In this document: positions 51,230 to 59,370 of the stretch, in pieces
How positions within the stretch are numbered: position 1 is the first letter of the stretch
Layout: every line of letters begins with the position of its first letter
Assembly (NCBI GenBank): GCA_035286585.1
Contig: DATEDC010000195.1
Location: 4,139-68,138, forward strand
DNA: 64,000 nt
Reading direction: 5' to 3'
Source of the DNA: Anaerolineales bacterium
GTDB taxonomy: Bacteria; Chloroflexota; Anaerolineae; Anaerolineales; UBA4823
Made by a program: the position numbers and the translations under genes
Notes under the pieces: generated by a model
Databases searched by the model: none
What the model saw: the letters and a program-made list of their open reading frames with translations, nothing else
What the model was told of the DNA's origin: nothing

Positions 51230-52846
51230 TCAGGGCGCTATTTTTTCCACGTAGGGTATTACCCCCTGGCATGGGATGGTGAACTGCGAGCGCACCTCGT
51301 CCCAGAGCAAGCGCCTACCGTTGGCATTCCAGGCCTGATGGACCGCGTAGGACAAGCAACCCGGGCCGGCGTGGTAGTTCGCAATTGTCAGGCGCCACAG
51401 GTCCTGGTAATTGCTCACCGTCCCGGCGATTTTTCCCGTTGCATTATAAACAATCTGCGCTACCTGCTCGCAGTTCGCCAGCAATGTATTTGCAAACAAT
51501 GACACACTGAAATCCACGTTCGTCAGGTCTATCCCTTGCTGGCAGGCCGGGCAATCGGCTCTGGCTTGAGCGGCGAGCGCCCCGCGCAGCATGGCCTGTT
51601 CCTCAGGTTTCAAGTTTAGGTAGCCGCGTTTGCAGGTATCCTGGGCAAGGATAAGCGGGCATAACTGGTTGTAAAAGGAGGGGTCCCACTGCAGGATTGT
51701 ATCCGCGCCGTTGTCCGTGATTTGACCCAGGCCAAACTCATTTGGTACCCGGAACATGCCTGGCCAAAACTGGGATTCCTGGGCGAACAGGTTTTTCATC
51801 AAGGTTGCCGGGACACCGCTCTCCTTGGCGATTGCGATAATCCGGCTGTCGAACTGGTTTTGCCAGGTTTCCAACGCAGGCCTGGCAGTTTCTAAGCCAC
51901 ATGCATCGGCGTAGCCATTGGGTTGCAGTCCGCCGGTGGGGCAGGCGGAGGCGTTAACAACACCCTGGGCAATTAAGCGCCCAGCGAGATAATAATAGGG
52001 CTGGTTCGAGGAGAGCAAATTAGAGTGATCGGGGGTCGAAAGCCAGCCTGTCAACCCTCCAACGGGAGGGAACGCCCGCCAGGTCTGAGAACAACTGGCC
52101 AGCCGGGCGCCGCGCCACTGGCTGCTCAAGACATCCACATACCAGCCCGAGCCGCGCGGCACCGGCGATACCCCGCTTTCTATCACCCGCACCTGAGCTT
52201 TGAATGTGCGGCTTACATCACCATAGCTGGATTTAGCCACAAATTCTACTTCAACCCCCTCCGTCGACGTCACCCGTAATGGAATGGCGCAGGTGGATCC
52301 CTCACAGGCGAAGGGCTGGTTATTATACAGTCCCTCTATCGCAGTGATCTGCTCATTGGGCAGTGGCTCCTCGCCCGTCAGGAGCAATTTCGGTAATTTC
52401 TCGCAGCGATTCTGCGGGGGGACGGGCTCGCAGCCATCCAGACTGACCCAAACCTGGAGAGGCGGGAGGGTCACCAGCATCTCCTTTGTTTTGGGCGAGG
52501 AGGTGACCAGGTGTAAATATAACCCTTCACACGAACCGGTCTTCAAATTTCCTTTGAGAAGATTTTTGCAAGGGGGTGTAGCCAGCCATTGGGCTTGCAG
52601 GTCTGCACCGCAAGCCTTATACACCTCCGTGCTGGTGGGCAGCCCCTCATGATCGCTGAGGATTTGGCAGAGAATCATGTTGTCCGTCCAGCTCAGCAGC
52701 CACCACTGGTATTCGGTATAAGAAACAATGATCTTCGTTTGGCGAGTGGATGTTTGAGCGGGGGCGCGTTCATAGATCACCGCTGTCATGCCGATGAAAG
52801 CAAGTAAGAAACACGCGGCTTTAAAAATTCTTCGCGGCCCCTTCAT
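51230..52846 (-). CDS. Secreted Cys-rich protein with a C-terminal lytic transglycosylase-like domain
   Basis: Signal peptide; FAQESQF, GLGQIT, ANYHAGPG resemble SLT motifs; 19 Cys. Confidence 0.7.
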   Translation of the reverse strand: MKGPRRIFKAACFLLAFIGMTAVIYERAPAQTSTRQTKIIVSYTEYQWWLLSWTDNMILCQILSDHEGLPTSTEVYKACGADLQAQWLATPPCKNLLKGNLKTGSCEGLYLHLVTSSPKTKEMLVTLPPLQVWVSLDGCEPVPPQNRCEKLPKLLLTGEEPLPNEQITAIEGLYNNQPFACEGSTCAIPLRVTSTEGVEVEFVAKSSYGDVSRTFKAQVRVIESGVSPVPRGSGWYVDVLSSQWRGARLASCSQTWRAFPPVGGLTGWLSTPDHSNLLSSNQPYYYLAGRLIAQGVVNASACPTGGLQPNGYADACGLETARPALETWQNQFDSRIIAIAKESGVPATLMKNLFAQESQFWPGMFRVPNEFGLGQITDNGADTILQWDPSFYNQLCPLILAQDTCKRGYLNLKPEEQAMLRGALAAQARADCPACQQGIDLTNVDFSVSLFANTLLANCEQVAQIVYNATGKIAGTVSNYQDLWRLTIANYHAGPGCLSYAVHQAWNANGRRLLWDEVRSQFTIPCQGVIPYVEKIAP

Positions 52847-52928: not shown

Positions 52929-52957
52929 TTGCACAGGCTTAAGGCCCATGATACACT
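52929..52957 (+). promoter_or_regulatory. Sigma70-type promoter, leaderless for ORF 52964
   Basis: TTGCAC-N17-TACACT with TG extension, then ctaaaa-ATG; no SD. Confidence 0.75.
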
Positions 52958-52963
52958 CTAAAA

Positions 52964-54160
52964 ATGGCAGAATATTTGTTCCCCTGGCTGTCGGATGTCG
53001 ACCGCGCCGCCCAATACCTGGCCAGTCTATCACTGTCCACAGCCGCGCAGGCAGCCATGCTCATCCGGGCCGAACGGCTCTGGGCTTATGCTGGCGAACT
53101 CTCGCAACCTGCAATCGAGGAACTGCTCAAGGCTGTCCTCAGGAAGAACCCGGCTGCAGGCGAAAAGGATATTACCCAGGGCTTGGATATTGCCCAGGGC
53201 AAAGACTATGCCCAGTTTGTAGCCTTAGAGTCTAGCGGCAGCGAATACCTGCTTTATAGCACTCGATTAGATGAAGGCATGCTGCTGGCGCTGGCCTTTG
53301 ATATCGAAGTACCTTTCAGCAAAATCAGATTGCAGGCTAACCGCCTGGCGAACGCGCTTAAGGCGCCGCCTGGCACGGTCTCGCTCGACCAGGATGACTT
53401 GCAGCAAGATGAAGACCGCTCCCAACTCGGGTTGCAACCATTATTCCCTCTCGAAGAACTCCCCCCGCCTACTCCTGCTCTGGCCTCCAGGCCGAGAAAT
53501 GGAGAGGAGGGCTATACCAACTGGCAGCATGAGACAGAGAGCGACCCATCACGTTCTGAAGACGATTTGCCCGGTTCTATGAAGGTTGGCGGGTTTGGGG
53601 CTCGGGAGCAGGAGACCTCGTGGGGATTCCATAACCCATCTGCGGTGCCGTCTGGTAGAGATCTGTCTTCAAACTTCACCGCATTGGAAGAAGGTCCGTT
53701 GCCGGAGGAGCGACAGCCCCTCGATGGGGAAACGAATCTCGGGCTGCCCAAATACAAAGCCGTACAGCCGCAACTGGACATCGGTTATACATTTCTGCTT
53801 GTGCCGCGCATGCCCGCTCATCGCCTGTTGGGGGAGCTGGCTATTGCCCTGGAAGAGGATATGCGTCAGCTATCGATGGCATTCGGATGGCGGTTAGAGC
53901 GCATGGTGATCCAAACGGAAACCCTGCAGTGGGGAGCCAGGGTAACCCCGAGCACCTCCCCCAGCCGCCTGGTCCGCCTGATCCGCAAGCATACTTCGCA
54001 AAGGTTGTTTGCCCGCTTTCCGCAACTCGAACGCGATAACCCTTCCGGTGACTTTTGGGCGCCGGGTTATCTGGTGATGAGCAGCACCCGGCCTTTGCCG
54101 GCTCAGGTAGTCAAATCTTTTGTCCAGCAGACACGTTTAAATCAAGGAGCGTCTGCTTGA
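52964..54160 (+). CDS. Roadblock/LC7-like domain + acidic linker + catalytically dead IS200/IS605 TnpA (Y1)-like domain
   Basis: C-terminus Y.F.LVPR...LLGE...PS.SPSRLV..I...TS.RL..RFPQL...GDFWAPGYLV.S...VVKSFV matches the TnpA layout with HUH read as TLQ and Tyr as Phe; N-terminus LLY.....MLLALAFD..VPFSKIRLQA.RL. Confidence 0.75.
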   Translation: MAEYLFPWLSDVDRAAQYLASLSLSTAAQAAMLIRAERLWAYAGELSQPAIEELLKAVLRKNPAAGEKDITQGLDIAQGKDYAQFVALESSGSEYLLYSTRLDEGMLLALAFDIEVPFSKIRLQANRLANALKAPPGTVSLDQDDLQQDEDRSQLGLQPLFPLEELPPPTPALASRPRNGEEGYTNWQHETESDPSRSEDDLPGSMKVGGFGAREQETSWGFHNPSAVPSGRDLSSNFTALEEGPLPEERQPLDGETNLGLPKYKAVQPQLDIGYTFLLVPRMPAHRLLGELAIALEEDMRQLSMAFGWRLERMVIQTETLQWGARVTPSTSPSRLVRLIRKHTSQRLFARFPQLERDNPSGDFWAPGYLVMSSTRPLPAQVVKSFVQQTRLNQGASA

Positions 54161-54177
54161 GCGTTTATTGGTGAGAA

Positions 54178-56979
54178 ATGCCGCCTACGTTGTATTTAAT
54201 TGACGGTCATGCCCTGGCATACCGCGCCTATTTTGCATTGTTACGCGCTTCGACGAGCGGCTTCGCCACCAGCAAAGGCGAGCCCACGGCGGGAATATTT
54301 GGCTTTACCAGCGTTTTGCTGCGCATCCTGGAGCAGGAACGTCCGGATTATCTGGCGGTCGCCTTTGATACCGGAAAAACATTCAGGGATGACCTGTATC
54401 CTGAATATAAAGGCACGCGAGCGAAGATGCCCGATGACCTGCGAGCGCAGATCGAGCGCATCCGCCAGCTTGTAGACGCGTTCAACATCCCGCGCCTGGA
54501 AGTCGAAGGCTACGAAGCTGATGATGTATTGGGAAGTGTGGCGAAGTGGGCGGTAGGCCAGGGCCTGGGGGTGAAGATTATAACGGGCGACCGGGATCTG
54601 CTCCAACTGGTGGAGGAACGCATCATCGTCAACCTGCCAGGCAAATCGCTTTCCGAGGCGCGCGACTACCTGCCCGAGCATGTGCAGGAATATCTCGGCG
54701 TGCGCCCCGATCAGGTGGTCGACTATAAAGCCCTGGTAGGCGATAAGTCTGATAATATCCCAGGTGTGGCAGGGATTGGTGAAAAAACAGCCGCCTCGCT
54801 CCTGCAATCGTATGGTAATCTCGACGAAATTTACGCCCATCTGGATGATTTATCAAAAGGCGTGCGCGAAAAGCTCGCAACGGGACGAGAGGATGCTTAC
54901 CTGAGCCAGCAGCTATCCAAAATTGTCACTAATCTCTCGATACCCCTGGATCTTGAGCAGGCTCGCCCACACGATTTCGATCCCGGGCGCATTGAAGCCC
55001 TCTTCAGGGAATTGGAATTCCGCACCTTGTTGGGCCGGCTGAGCAGCCTGATGCAGTCCTTTGGGTTATCCCAAGCTCAGGCAGGTCGCCAGTTGGGCTT
55101 ATTCCAGGAACCTGCGCCGCAGGTTATACAGCCAGCGCCGCCCTCTTCAGAGAGATTGAGCGCGCAGGTGGTCGATACGCCCGAATCGTTGCAGGCATTG
55201 GTAAGCCGCCTGGAGCAGGCGCAGGTGATCGCCTTCGATACCGAGACCACCTCCACGGACCAAATGCTGGCTGATCTGGTGGGAATCGCCCTGGCCGTGG
55301 ATGGTGACAGCAGCTATTACATTCCAGTGGGTCACCGCAGAGAACTGGGCCAACAGCTGCCGCTGGAGACCGTCATCGAAGCCCTGCGTAAACCACTGAC
55401 AGATGCGAAGATACCTAAAGCGGGGCATAACTTGAAATACGATTTCATCCTGCTGGCCCGGAATGGGTTGAGGGTAACCCCGCTCTCGTTCGATTCGATG
55501 ATCGCCGAGTGGTTGATAAACCCGGCTTCGCGCAACCTGGGCTTGAAGAACCTGGCGTGGATCCGCTTGAATTTCAAGATGACAGACATCGAAGATCTGA
55601 TCGGGAAGGGCAGAAATCAAATCAGCATGGCCGAGGTAGCGATCGATCGGGCGGTCTCTTACGCGGGAGCGGACGTGAAGGCGGTGCTCCGCCTGATGCC
55701 GGTGCTGCAGGGCGAGCTGGAAAAATGCCAGGAGACCAAATTATTCTATGAATTGGAAATGCCCCTGGTCGAAATTCTGGCAGATATGGAGATGAACGGC
55801 ATAGTCCTGGACACGCAGTTCCTGGCCACCATGTCTGCCCAACTGCAAGCTCGCCTGGACCAGATCGAGGATCAGATCCACCGGGTGTCTGGCGATACGT
55901 TTAACATCAATTCACCGCAACAGCTCTCCGAGGTCCTTTTTAAGCGGTTGGGGATCCAGCCTCCTGACCGAACCCAGAAGACCGCCAGCGGGTTTTATTC
56001 CACATCAGCGGAGGTGCTGGAAGCGTTGAGCGGAAAACATCCCATGGTGGACTGGGTTTTAGAATATCGAGAACTCTCGAAATTAAAATCCACCTATCTC
56101 GATGCTCTGCCATTGCAGGTGAATCCTGCGACCGGGCGAGTGCACACCTCGTACAACCAGACCGGGTCGGTCACTGGAAGGATCGCCTCCTCGAATCCAA
56201 ACCTGCAAAATATCCCCATCAGAACCGAGCTGGGCAAACAGGTCCGCCAGGGGTTCGTGGCAGCCCCCGGACTGAGTTTACTCTCGGTGGATTATTCGCA
56301 GATCGAGCTGCGCATCGTCGCCCACATCTCGGGGGACGAAGCCATGCTGGCTGCGTTCCGAGCCGGACAGGACATCCACGCGGCTACAGCCGCAAGGATA
56401 CTTGGCATCCCGATAGAATCAATCACCCCGGATCAGCGCCGGCACGCCAAGGCGATTAACTTCGGGTTGATCTACGGGATGAGCGCTTATGGATTGACTC
56501 GTACAACCGACCTGACCCTGGCGGAAGCGGAGGATTTCGTCGAGTCGTATTTTCACCAGTTTCCCGGCGTCAAGCGCTACCTGGACTCGATGCGCCGCCA
56601 GGCCGTGGAGCGCGAGTATGTGGAGACTTTATTGGGTCGCAGGCGTTACTTTCCAGGCCTGAAGAATCAAAGCAACCGCAATATTCGCAATCGCGAAGAA
56701 CGCGAGGCAATCAATGCCCCCATCCAGGGCGCGGCTGCGGATATCATCAAAATCGCCATGCTGCGGGTACCCGCTGCCCTGGCAGAAGCGGGTTTGTCAG
56801 CGCGCATGCTGCTGCAGGTCCATGACGAGCTGGTCCTGGAGTGCCCAGAGGAGGAATTGAATGCCACGGCTCGCTGGGTTCGGGAGGTGATGGAATCAGC
56901 CTACCAATTGAAGATACCCTTGCTGACGGAAGCGCGCAGCGGCCTGAACTGGGGAGAAATGGTGCCGGTGGCTGATTAA
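54178..56979 (+). CDS. polA: DNA polymerase I (5'-3' nuclease, intact 3'-5' exonuclease, polymerase)
   Basis: LIDGH, YEADD, GD.SDNIPGV.GIG.KTA, FDTET, TGRIASS.PNLQNIP, DYSQIELR, KAINFGLIYG, QVHDELV. Confidence 0.99.
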   Translation: MPPTLYLIDGHALAYRAYFALLRASTSGFATSKGEPTAGIFGFTSVLLRILEQERPDYLAVAFDTGKTFRDDLYPEYKGTRAKMPDDLRAQIERIRQLVDAFNIPRLEVEGYEADDVLGSVAKWAVGQGLGVKIITGDRDLLQLVEERIIVNLPGKSLSEARDYLPEHVQEYLGVRPDQVVDYKALVGDKSDNIPGVAGIGEKTAASLLQSYGNLDEIYAHLDDLSKGVREKLATGREDAYLSQQLSKIVTNLSIPLDLEQARPHDFDPGRIEALFRELEFRTLLGRLSSLMQSFGLSQAQAGRQLGLFQEPAPQVIQPAPPSSERLSAQVVDTPESLQALVSRLEQAQVIAFDTETTSTDQMLADLVGIALAVDGDSSYYIPVGHRRELGQQLPLETVIEALRKPLTDAKIPKAGHNLKYDFILLARNGLRVTPLSFDSMIAEWLINPASRNLGLKNLAWIRLNFKMTDIEDLIGKGRNQISMAEVAIDRAVSYAGADVKAVLRLMPVLQGELEKCQETKLFYELEMPLVEILADMEMNGIVLDTQFLATMSAQLQARLDQIEDQIHRVSGDTFNINSPQQLSEVLFKRLGIQPPDRTQKTASGFYSTSAEVLEALSGKHPMVDWVLEYRELSKLKSTYLDALPLQVNPATGRVHTSYNQTGSVTGRIASSNPNLQNIPIRTELGKQVRQGFVAAPGLSLLSVDYSQIELRIVAHISGDEAMLAAFRAGQDIHAATAARILGIPIESITPDQRRHAKAINFGLIYGMSAYGLTRTTDLTLAEAEDFVESYFHQFPGVKRYLDSMRRQAVEREYVETLLGRRRYFPGLKNQSNRNIRNREEREAINAPIQGAAADIIKIAMLRVPAALAEAGLSARMLLQVHDELVLECPEEELNATARWVREVMESAYQLKIPLLTEARSGLNWGEMVPVAD

Positions 56980-57042
56980 GCTATCGAACGCGATACTGGC
57001 GTTGTGCTCCTTTTTCAAATGGGATAGTTTGCAGGAGTTGTT

Positions 57043-59370
57043 ATGAGTGGGACAGAAGAAATATTCCAGCGGGTAATGGATCAGGGTCATTCTGCCGCAT
57101 GGGATCAAAAATGGGACCAGGCGGCTGGCTATTACAGCCAGGCGTTAGAAATGTATCCGAATAATATTTCTGCGTTAACCAGCCTGGGGCTGGCTCTATA
57201 TGAACTCCACAGGCTCGAGGATGCGTTGCGCTGTTACATCCAGGCTGCCAAACTGACCCCCAACGACCCGCTGCCGCTGGAAAAGATAGCCCATATTTAT
57301 CGCCAAATGGGAAATAGTAAGTTTGCTCAGGCTGCGGCCACGCGCGCGGCCGAGATTTTCTTAAAAAATCATGAGGTCAACAAGGCCTTAGAAAACTGGC
57401 AATTCATCGCCCAACTCAATCCGGGATATCTCCCGGCGCATACCCGGTTGGCGTACATCTATGAACGGCTCGGACGCAAAGAGGATGCGGCTGGCGAATA
57501 CCTGGCGCTGGCAAGCCTTCTGCAAAAGGCGAACGATGTCGATCGGGCGGTACAGGCAGCCAACCGCGCAGCGCAAATTAACCCCGGAAGCGCTGATGTC
57601 CTGGATGCACTTGCAGCGCTCAGAGAATTCCAACCTGTGCCGATGCCTGACAGGTACGCTAAGAGCCAGACCAGCACGCAGTCTGCCACGACTCCTGGGT
57701 CGGCTGTATCAGCGCAGGTTGAATCTACTGCCGAGGAGCTGGACCCGATATCCGCAGCGCGGCAAAAATCTCTGGCAGTGCTGGCTAGCGTCCTGTTCGA
57801 TGCCGTTGAGGAGGCGGAGGAAGTGGGCGTGGAACGTTCTGGATTCCGCTCGATCATGCGCGGGACAGGGAAGCTGATGAGCGCCAACGTGGATCGCTCG
57901 CGAATCGTGCTGCATGTCAGCCAGGTAATCGAACTGCAGACGCAGGGGGAAGTATCTCAAGCAGCCGAGGAGCTTGAACGGGCGGTTCAATCGGGCCTGG
58001 AAACTGCGGCGGCATATTTTGATTTAGGGTTATTAAAATATCTCGGTGGCGATCTAGAAGAGGCGAAACGTTATATGAAATCCGCGCTGCAGAGCCCTGA
58101 GTTTGCCTTGGGGGCGCGATTGGTCATGGGGCAGATGCTGCAAAAATCGGGGAAACACAAAGAAGCCGCGCTTGAATATTTGGAAGCTTTGCGTTTAGCC
58201 GAGATCGATGTGCTGCCTAAGGATCAGGCGAAAGAATTGGATCAACGATACGACCCACTGATCGAGTCGCAAAGGCTGGAGCCGGATCCCCGGGTGCACG
58301 AGCGAGTGTGTGAAAATATTTCTGGCCTGCTCATCCAGCCCGGCTGGCAGAAGAGGCTCAGCCAGGCGCGTAAAGAGATGGCGCAACAAGGGGAGGAGAG
58401 TCGAGTCGTGCCGCTGGCGGAGCTGATCATCCAGTCAGGAAGCAGCCAGATTGTAGAAGCAGTGAGTCGAATAACCGCTCTCGAGAGGGCTGGTCTTTGG
58501 CGGTCTGCGATGGAAGAAGCTTATTTTGCGCTGGATTTTGCGCCTACGTACCTGCCCTTGCATTTGCAGATGGCAGGGTTATTGCTGAGCCAGGGACAGA
58601 CGCAGGAAGCTATCGAGAAGCTGCTCGTGGTAGCCGAGGCGCATCAGACGCGCGGCGAAGCGAAGCGGGCGATCGAGATCTACCGCCAGGTGATCGAATT
58701 GGCGCCGTTGGAGCTTGCACCGCGCAATTTACTGATTCAACAATTGATCCGTCTCGGCCAGATTGAAGAGGCTGTCCAGGAATATGTTCATCTGGCGGAG
58801 GTGTACTACAACCTGGCAAACCTGGAAAAGGCACGCAGTACGTATGTTGAAGCCTTTAAACTTGCGCAGCAAGCCAATACGGATCCGTCACTGCGCGCCG
58901 GCATCCTACACCACATAGCGGATATCGATCTGCAAAGCCTGGATTGGCGCCAGGCGATTCAGGTCTTTGAACAAATACGCACCTTGCTGCCCGATGATGA
59001 AAAGGCACGTTCCAGCCTGGTGGAGATAAACGTACGCCTTGGGCAAGAGCAAAAAGCCATGGTGGAGATCGATAACTACATAGCTTACTTGTTGAAATCG
59101 GGGTTCAAGGGCAGGGCAGTCAGTTTTTTGGAGAATCTGAGGCGGGAATATCCTGAGCGATTGGCAATCCGTCACCGCCTGGCTTCCTTCTATAAACGCG
59201 AGGGCAGGAAAACCGAAGCGATTACCGAATTGGATGCCATCGGGGAAATGCTGGTCGAAGCGGGCAAAATTGCTGACGCGGCTCGAATCATCGAAGAGAT
59301 CCTGGCGTTGGGACCGCCGAACGTGGGAGATTATCGTGCATTGTTAGATCAGCTAAAACGGGGGAGTTGA
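57043..59370 (+). CDS. Large tetratricopeptide-repeat protein
   Basis: Many TPR-like units (A..YY.QAL...P.N..A...LG..L); SD AGGAG. Confidence 0.88.
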   Translation: MSGTEEIFQRVMDQGHSAAWDQKWDQAAGYYSQALEMYPNNISALTSLGLALYELHRLEDALRCYIQAAKLTPNDPLPLEKIAHIYRQMGNSKFAQAAATRAAEIFLKNHEVNKALENWQFIAQLNPGYLPAHTRLAYIYERLGRKEDAAGEYLALASLLQKANDVDRAVQAANRAAQINPGSADVLDALAALREFQPVPMPDRYAKSQTSTQSATTPGSAVSAQVESTAEELDPISAARQKSLAVLASVLFDAVEEAEEVGVERSGFRSIMRGTGKLMSANVDRSRIVLHVSQVIELQTQGEVSQAAEELERAVQSGLETAAAYFDLGLLKYLGGDLEEAKRYMKSALQSPEFALGARLVMGQMLQKSGKHKEAALEYLEALRLAEIDVLPKDQAKELDQRYDPLIESQRLEPDPRVHERVCENISGLLIQPGWQKRLSQARKEMAQQGEESRVVPLAELIIQSGSSQIVEAVSRITALERAGLWRSAMEEAYFALDFAPTYLPLHLQMAGLLLSQGQTQEAIEKLLVVAEAHQTRGEAKRAIEIYRQVIELAPLELAPRNLLIQQLIRLGQIEEAVQEYVHLAEVYYNLANLEKARSTYVEAFKLAQQANTDPSLRAGILHHIADIDLQSLDWRQAIQVFEQIRTLLPDDEKARSSLVEINVRLGQEQKAMVEIDNYIAYLLKSGFKGRAVSFLENLRREYPERLAIRHRLASFYKREGRKTEAITELDAIGEMLVEAGKIADAARIIEEILALGPPNVGDYRALLDQLKRGS

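Follow-up and report, generated by a model that had tools for sequence, protein, structure and literature searches.

A gene that fuses a Roadblock domain to a transposase fold predicted to be catalytically dead, and a large tetratricopeptide-repeat (TPR) protein encoded two genes downstream, may together be parts of an MglA-type GTPase module that positions Tad pili or switches them on; we put the probability of this reading at about one half (0.5). Both genes lie in a 64,000-nucleotide stretch from an Anaerolineales bacterium (contig DATEDC010000195.1; hereafter the window), whose source genome is 82% complete. Three genes follow one another there on the forward strand: gene 1, the fusion (52964..54160, 398 amino acids), gene 2, polA (54178..56979, 933 amino acids), and gene 3, the TPR gene (57043..59370, 775 amino acids). 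The reading builds on what is directly observed, namely the domain architecture of gene 1, the loss of its catalytic residues, purifying selection, the gene order and the co-occurrence of the TPR gene with MglA and the Tad-pilus marker CpaB, and it takes polA as a long-standing neighbour, not as a partner. The fusion itself is real, conserved and apparently undescribed: a search covering mainly open-access main texts found no paper that describes a Roadblock-dead TnpA fusion or, for Anaerolineae, a control of Tad pili by MglA, and a survey of Y1 transposases dropped long fusions and kept only rows with both HuH and Y (PMC6006769; here and below, cited work is quoted from the accessible parts of each paper).

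The structural model of gene 1 contains two confident domains joined by an acidic, proline-rich linker (residues about 139–267, 53378..53764), which is largely disordered in the model, with per-residue confidence (pLDDT) below 50 at residues 179–241 and 253–267. The N-terminal domain (residues about 7–138, 52982..53377) is an MglB-like Roadblock domain: Foldseek matches it to MglB (1j3w, E 4e-5), Z scores to Roadblock and MglB chains reach 11–13, and the best sequence matches of the family profile in the PDB are MglB proteins (E 5e-4). The MglB equivalog model gives 16.8 bits at a cut-off of 200, and a profile comparison with one free Roadblock of the same genome gave no match. The C-terminal domain (residues about 268–398, 53765..54157) has the fold of an IS200-type transposase (TnpA). 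Y1_Tnp (PF01797) is matched at residues 274–389 (E 3e-9; 37 bits, cut-off 23), and structure 2ec2 superposes with Z 15.8 and a root mean square deviation of 1.7 over 108 aligned residues; the match to 4er8 is weaker (Z 8.9), and the NCBIfam transposase score of 45 bits stays below its cut-off of 55. Most relatives are about 530 amino acids long and carry an additional atypical receiver at the N-terminus (98 of 115 aligned rows), which keeps the Asp and Lys and lacks the acidic pocket pair. The lineage of the window has no receiver.

The residues that make TnpA an enzyme are missing throughout the family. In the window copy the HUH position reads T-L-Q (320–322), the tyrosine position of helix alphaD is F386 and the glutamine position of YxxxQ is T390. 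Across the family, D-H-I-H-L of active TnpA has become E-Y-L-Q-W, and Y-I-E-E-Q has become F-I-K-Q-T. H-x-H persists in 6 of 121 rows of one alignment and 1 of 66 of another, YxxxQ in 0 of 121 and 2 of 66, and no row of either combines H-x-H with the catalytic tyrosine. Judged from these residues, the domain is catalytically dead, so that the first-pass annotation, which had proposed a dead TnpA joined to a Roadblock, read gene 1 correctly. Other positions are retained or newly fixed. All but one of 121 rows retain P329, the counterpart of the dimer residue P73 of IS608; in IS200 TnpAs, which dimerise obligatorily, a proline following beta4 is of key importance (PMC3479197). N359, P360 and D363 are new invariant residues, the glycine of the K-G-x-S/T-S helix is replaced by Q, E or K, and the mean net charge of the dead domains is +2.2, compared with +5 to +10 in six active TnpAs. 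Positions at the dimer interface have thus been preserved, and part of the DNA-facing surface has not (the proline retained, the helix glycine and much of the positive charge lost), so that the fold may serve mainly as a dimer unit.

Comparison with known transposases sets gene 1 apart from both groups it resembles. It shares with IS200/IS605 TnpAs (ISDra2, IS608, Sulfolobus IS200) the fold, the dimer proline, the strand pattern and 15–21% identity. Those proteins, in contrast, are stand-alone chains of about 150 amino acids inside mobile elements with end hairpins and often tnpB, whereas gene 1 is a single-copy 398-residue fusion at a fixed locus, without HUH and tyrosine and, in relatives, with a receiver as well as the Roadblock. 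With the TnpA-REP proteins (RAYT) gene 1 has a host-fixed Y1 fold in common; these are active and monomeric, with HUH and Y-x-x-x-NP, and are flanked by repetitive extragenic palindromes (REPs) in REP/BIME arrays (PMC3479197, PMC6006769), while gene 1 is IS200-like, dead and without a REP array. No close inverted repeat is present among the 25 longest repeats listed in the region, no REP array, insertion sequence (IS) end hairpins or tnpB were seen there, and the repeats that do occur look like chance. Databases nevertheless name the family transposase or RayT, names that inflate IS counts and hide a host gene.

The fusion is widespread and under constraint. In an even sample of 120 Anaerolineales genomes, on which all order-level counts rest, the dead TnpA occurs in 62 once weak matches in short frames, taken as IS copies, are excluded, and its profile finds 531 representatives (50% identity clusters) at E values up to 1e-30. 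Both domains are under purifying selection, with a median dN/dS of 0.23 for TnpA (160 pairs) and 0.21 for the Roadblock (115 pairs). In a tree of 46 rows, 40 dead domains are split from six active TnpAs of these genomes by a 100/99 branch, a topology compatible with one capture of a transposase; atlas look-ups of the family returned only Chloroflexota clusters, without function. Fifteen genomes of the order carry a receiver-Roadblock gene without TnpA, never more than about 2 kb upstream of polA. TnpA may have joined the gene after the link to polA arose, but TnpA remnants in two other families (f43 and f28) make this sequence of events less than certain. The family is a case of a prokaryotic transposase taken over by its hosts as a non-catalytic part of a signalling protein, one that is common in a large order.

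Tad pili enter the argument through co-occurrence. The counts that follow ignore kinship, being made without a species tree, and draft genomes miss genes. Among the 120 genomes the TPR gene is missing from 18, MglA from 22 and CpaB from 18; 17 of the 18 TPR-negative genomes also lack MglA, 16 lack CpaB and 15 lack all three. These losses span five taxonomic groups (f16, f17, f9/g146, f1/g137 and f13). When one genome per group was searched, free Roadblocks were found in 0 of 5, while control families remained (M23 in 5, ECF sigma in 4, SLT in 3). At class level, among 150 genomes, the TPR gene and MglA occur together in 76, the TPR gene alone in 3, MglA alone in none and neither in 71. The Roadblock of gene 1 follows the same trend, being present in 67 of 102 TPR-positive against 3 of 18 TPR-negative genomes of the order, and 29 of its 31 carriers in the class have the TPR gene.

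The GTPase concerned (G000:C135:4486-5025, L126) is 70–88% identical in most genomes across the class and in relatives usually follows a DUF4388 gene. The genome of the window encodes, unlinked to the locus, an MglA-type GTPase on another contig, two free Roadblocks and tadB/tadC-like genes. Of the two ideas in the first-pass annotation, a Roadblock-TPR signalling module with an MglA-like GTPase is the one better supported, although the evidence connects such a module with Tad pili and not with replication or repair. The co-loss pattern names MglA, the DUF4388 protein, the Roadblocks and the 775-residue TPR protein as candidate parts of a likely Tad-pilus control in Chloroflexota.

Mechanistically, the proposal draws on analogy with characterised MglA systems. 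In these systems MglA is bound by two TPR proteins, SgmX, which promotes pili, and Bd2492 (PMC7519303). The TPR protein of the window, which is likewise large and occurs together with MglA and pilus genes, would act like SgmX and link MglA-GTP to the pilus machine. This makes it a candidate effector whose binding to MglA we infer, and it differs from SgmX in length (775 against 1060 amino acids) and in being associated with Tad and not type IVa pili. Its score against the SgmX model is 42 bits at a cut-off of 1800, and a fold search with its model, a TPR solenoid, returned generic TPR solenoids (TM at most 0.20 by query) in a list that does not include SgmX, which does not speak against a likeness.

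For gene 1 a parallel is offered by RomR, in which a receiver is followed by a disordered region and then by a C-terminal part that oligomerises and binds the Roadblock protein MglC (PMC10329633). Most members of the gene 1 family show a comparable succession of receiver, disordered linker and C-terminal module, although the receiver is atypical and is absent in the window, and a TnpA fold stands where RomR has a Glu-rich helical C-terminus. Receiver and Roadblock are separate proteins in Myxococcus, while this family has both in one chain. By this comparison the receiver-Roadblock protein may assist the MglA/MglB switch as a further regulator or as a scaffold, uniting RomR and MglC in a single chain, and the TnpA fold would mainly supply an interwoven dimer, as the C-terminus of RomR supplies oligomerisation. 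The window copy, having no receiver, would work without phospho-input. Roadblocks often work in heteromeric GTPase regulators (PMC9481161), and gene 1, which shares the Roadblock/LC7 fold of MglB and MglC, is closest to MglB. Chloroflexales have only Tad pili, anchored at septa (PMC7332563). Surface motility in Chloroflexota is poorly understood, and the candidate control system is directly testable.

Several observations weigh against this assignment. Every functional link rests on co-occurrence, and kin are not independent: the losses in f16 and f17 may be a single event, and the 71 class genomes with neither gene may represent few clades. The association of gene 1 with MglA is looser than that of the TPR gene, for gene 1 is missing from 35 of the 102 TPR-positive genomes; the dead TnpA is found in 57 of these 102 and still in 5 of the 18 TPR-negative ones. 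One genome (G201, 92% complete) keeps an intact gene 1 without MglA, TPR gene or CpaB, and in two others (G039 and G214) gene 1 is a linker-TnpA remnant away from polA. Unlike MglB, which stimulates GTP hydrolysis by MglA and is coupled to mglA within four genes, gene 1 has no mglA among the conserved neighbours of 80 loci. The MglA itself is of the GTPGQ type (groups 2–5) and lies next to DUF4388, whereas that of Myxococcus belongs to group 1 (classification in PMC4316618), and CpaB was not found in the window's own, 82% complete genome at E 1e-8. As to the fold, R281 and R341 are invariant and T344-S345 near-invariant, all of them where active TnpA has basic or conserved residues, and the TnpA domain of the window is still basic (net +6), so that it may bind nucleic acid. 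Finally, gene 1 has adjoined polA for a very long time and with few exceptions (53 of 62 genomes), and in another order two weak members of the family precede dnaA, not polA.

As to gene order, the first-pass annotation had described a putative three-gene operon, and the layout it gave stands: the open reading frame coordinates place the genes on the same strand with gaps of 17 and 63 nucleotides, and the order is conserved. In the best 80 of 567 confirmed GTDB loci, with titles mostly from Anaerolineales or Chloroflexota, polA follows gene 1 in 76 (three loci end too early and one has no polA) and the TPR gene is seen in 61, with varying flanking genes. All 120 genomes of the order have polA. 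Of the 62 genomes with the dead TnpA, 53 have it directly before polA, at most 700 nucleotides away, and 4 have it no further than 6 kb from polA; in the other 5 it lies elsewhere. The TPR gene adjoins polA in 59 of its 102 genomes, is near it in 3, far on the same contig in 7 and on another contig in 33. The gene 1-polA-TPR order is far beyond chance. The three genes do not behave as one unit, and the operon with polA is real as gene order, though probably not as a shared pathway.

A single promoter was also proposed for the set, and a conserved one precedes gene 1 at 52929..52957 on the forward strand (-35 TTGCAC, 17-nucleotide spacer, extended -10 TG-a-TACACT), ending 6 nucleotides before the ATG, so that the start of gene 1 would be leaderless or near-leaderless. 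Its core, TGATA[ACG]ACT, lies upstream of gene 1 in 75 of 77 testable relatives, compared with 65 of 4000 random 200-nucleotide windows of the same loci; a consensus promoter scan at its threshold listed no forward-strand site before gene 1 and missed this conserved one. Of seven relatives inspected after loss of gene 1, six still carry the motif upstream of polA. In this genome the promoter probably drives polA too, and co-transcription is plausible. The scan lists no forward-strand terminator-like site in either the 17- or the 63-nucleotide gap. Visual inspection alone suggested a weak extended -10-like site (57020-57028) ahead of the TPR gene. On the 5' side the unit is bounded by a divergent SLT-like gene outside it (51230..52846, reverse strand), which starts 117 nucleotides before gene 1 and in relatives without gene 1 is directly divergent from polA; a convergent gene ends 21 nucleotides past gene 3.

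Relatives show a different transcriptional arrangement. The gap between gene 1 and polA was measured in 75 loci; 49 gaps are long (at least 80 nucleotides; mostly one clade) and 26 short. Terminator-like hairpins occur in 41 of the 49 long gaps, where shuffled sequences give a mean of 0.13, and the hairpin loop holds TATAA in 36. LexA-like boxes, judged by the LexA consensus, occur in 12 of the 49 (shuffle mean 3.5), downstream of gene 1 and in several cases just before the hairpin; a copy of the box also lies before lexA in the window's own genome. A polA promoter separate from that of gene 1, which the first-pass annotation had set against its own operon, is present as terminator plus promoter elements in those 41 long gaps, but none of the 26 short gaps has a terminator, and the lineage of the window retains the shared promoter. 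The TPR gene has its own -10 box 12–13 nucleotides before the ATG in 28 of 61 loci.

These data bear directly on the proposal that gene 1 serves replication or repair. In that scenario lagging-strand hairpins or Pol I would be the targets of the dead TnpA, and its binding would be connected to the MglA switch through the receiver-Roadblock part, for instance so that pili or division keep time with replication. The position directly upstream of polA in 53 of 62 genomes, and within 6 kb in 4 more, speaks for it, as do the shared promoter in the window's family, the two weak relatives before dnaA, the conserved basic residues of helix alphaB and PR motif in the dead TnpA, and the action of active IS200 TnpA at replication forks (PMC6006769, PMC3971601). 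Gene 2 itself is an ordinary full-length Pol I (TIGR00593, 990 bits, cut-off 600) with its 5' nuclease, 3'-5' exonuclease and polymerase domains all above cut-offs. However, polA adjoins also where TnpA is absent, the dead TnpA is not found in 58 of the 120 genomes, all of which keep polA, and seven inspected relatives have lost gene 1 cleanly. The terminators in the long gaps, with LexA-like boxes placed after gene 1, separate the two genes further. Some IS200 TnpAs bind the clamp through a C-terminal motif (PMC3971601), yet no clamp-binding motif occurs in the last 40 residues of 254 family proteins. The lagging-strand partnership with Pol I suggested by the first-pass annotation is weakened by the adjacency that persists without the TnpA domain, and we consider a replication or repair role rather unlikely.

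The hairpins raise another option, in which the dead TnpA is a nucleic-acid-binding output domain through which a receiver-Roadblock sensor would recognise a hairpin, of DNA or RNA, and control gene expression; the TATAAT-loop terminator hairpin between gene 1 and polA in one clade would be a candidate target. Dead TnpB proteins have been reused as regulators. An intact TnpA fold under purifying selection and the TATAA-loop hairpin conserved in 36 of 49 long gaps fit this option, and TnpA reads hairpins by backbone shape (10.1101/2024.12.22.630000). Yet the hairpin occurs in 0 of 26 short gaps, has no counterpart in the 17-nucleotide gap of the window and is adequately explained as a terminator plus promoter; the replaced helix glycine and the lowered mean charge also argue against nucleic-acid binding. 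On balance we find such an output role unlikely. A bolder combination is a comparably long shot: a transposase captured once would have lost catalysis, kept hairpin binding and been wired into an MglA/Roadblock/TPR polarity switch, conveying single-stranded DNA or replication state to Tad-pilus placement at the septa of filamentous Anaerolineae. If this were true, such coupling of replication and pilus would explain why the gene keeps its position upstream of polA, and upstream of dnaA in one family.

In 17 loci from outside the order, polA is directly downstream of the family member in 8 (6 of them without TnpA) and one gene away in 1; the remaining 8 have no polA in the stretch fetched, two of these being the weak members that precede dnaA. 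Among 20 loci of other orders, 15 allowed the TPR gene to be placed; polA is absent from the three flanking genes inspected on each side of it, and it stands mostly in the run argF-TPR-dacA-cdaR-der. Two loci show the intermediate order gene 1, polA, argF, TPR. The TPR gene probably reached polA by loss of argF from an older polA-argF-TPR-dacA run.

Such a history would suit the view that gene 1 and the TPR gene are unrelated, the latter serving MglA and Tad pili, the former having another role, and their order being inherited housekeeping synteny. In its favour, 35 of 102 TPR-positive genomes do without gene 1, and a few genomes that lack MglA still have it. Against it, the Roadblock resembles MglB and is enriched with the TPR gene and MglA at both order and class level, and we regard a mere coincidence of neighbours as quite improbable.

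The first-pass annotation had also suggested that the dead TnpA restrains active IS200/IS605 elements, as a dominant negative acting through mixed dimers or occupied IS ends. The obligatory dimerisation of IS200 TnpAs (PMC3479197) and the retained dimer proline would allow mixed dimers. The genomic counts do not bear the idea out: 13 of the 62 genomes with the dead domain have IS200 TnpA genes, as do 7 of the 58 without it, a difference contrary to the one expected (Fisher p 0.23; drafts under-assemble IS copies). The dead domain is, besides, a single conserved lineage far from active TnpAs, and restraint leaves the receiver-Roadblock fusion unexplained. We therefore judge it very improbable indeed.

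A number of minor observations concern the same genes. In one relative an internal deletion (L167:473-955, reverse strand) joins a partial receiver to a partial TnpA fold, giving a 160-residue decay intermediate of gene 1 before polA. Stand-alone genes for linker and dead TnpA lie away from polA at L119:8115-8699 and L018:1459-2199, both on the reverse strand; one is a second copy and one is in a genome without MglA, TPR gene and CpaB. The weak receiver-Roadblock members upstream of dnaA (L116:7835-10505 and L118:7810-10286) come from one family of another order. In another order, too, a receiver-Roadblock-TnpA gene (L103:1997-7618) lies downstream of genes that resemble tadA, tadB, tadC and comF, as seen by eye from their N-termini.

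Around the neighbouring genes, a TATAAT-loop hairpin followed by a T run (L028, L032, L036, L066 and others) may end the gene 1 transcript and start that of polA. A leaderless-type promoter, TACG[GT]TATAAT, stands 6–7 nucleotides before the TPR ATG (L028, L032, L036, L048 and others), often with a short inverted repeat upstream. In the window the opening codons of gene 1 hold a LexA-like box (52970-52981), which was set aside because it has one mismatch, recurs near the start in only 2 of 65 relatives and falls where loss of the receiver likely left a junction; it is probably chance. Outside the order dacA, a c-di-AMP cyclase gene, mostly then cdaR, follows the TPR gene (L139, L141, L142, L145-L151, L154, L157, L158), a neighbourhood that could link the module to c-di-AMP. 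Finally, the linker of Pol I contains Q-L-x-L-F (window 55087-55104, residues about 304–309), which resembles a clamp-binding motif and is present in 45 of 52 Pol I sequences checked.

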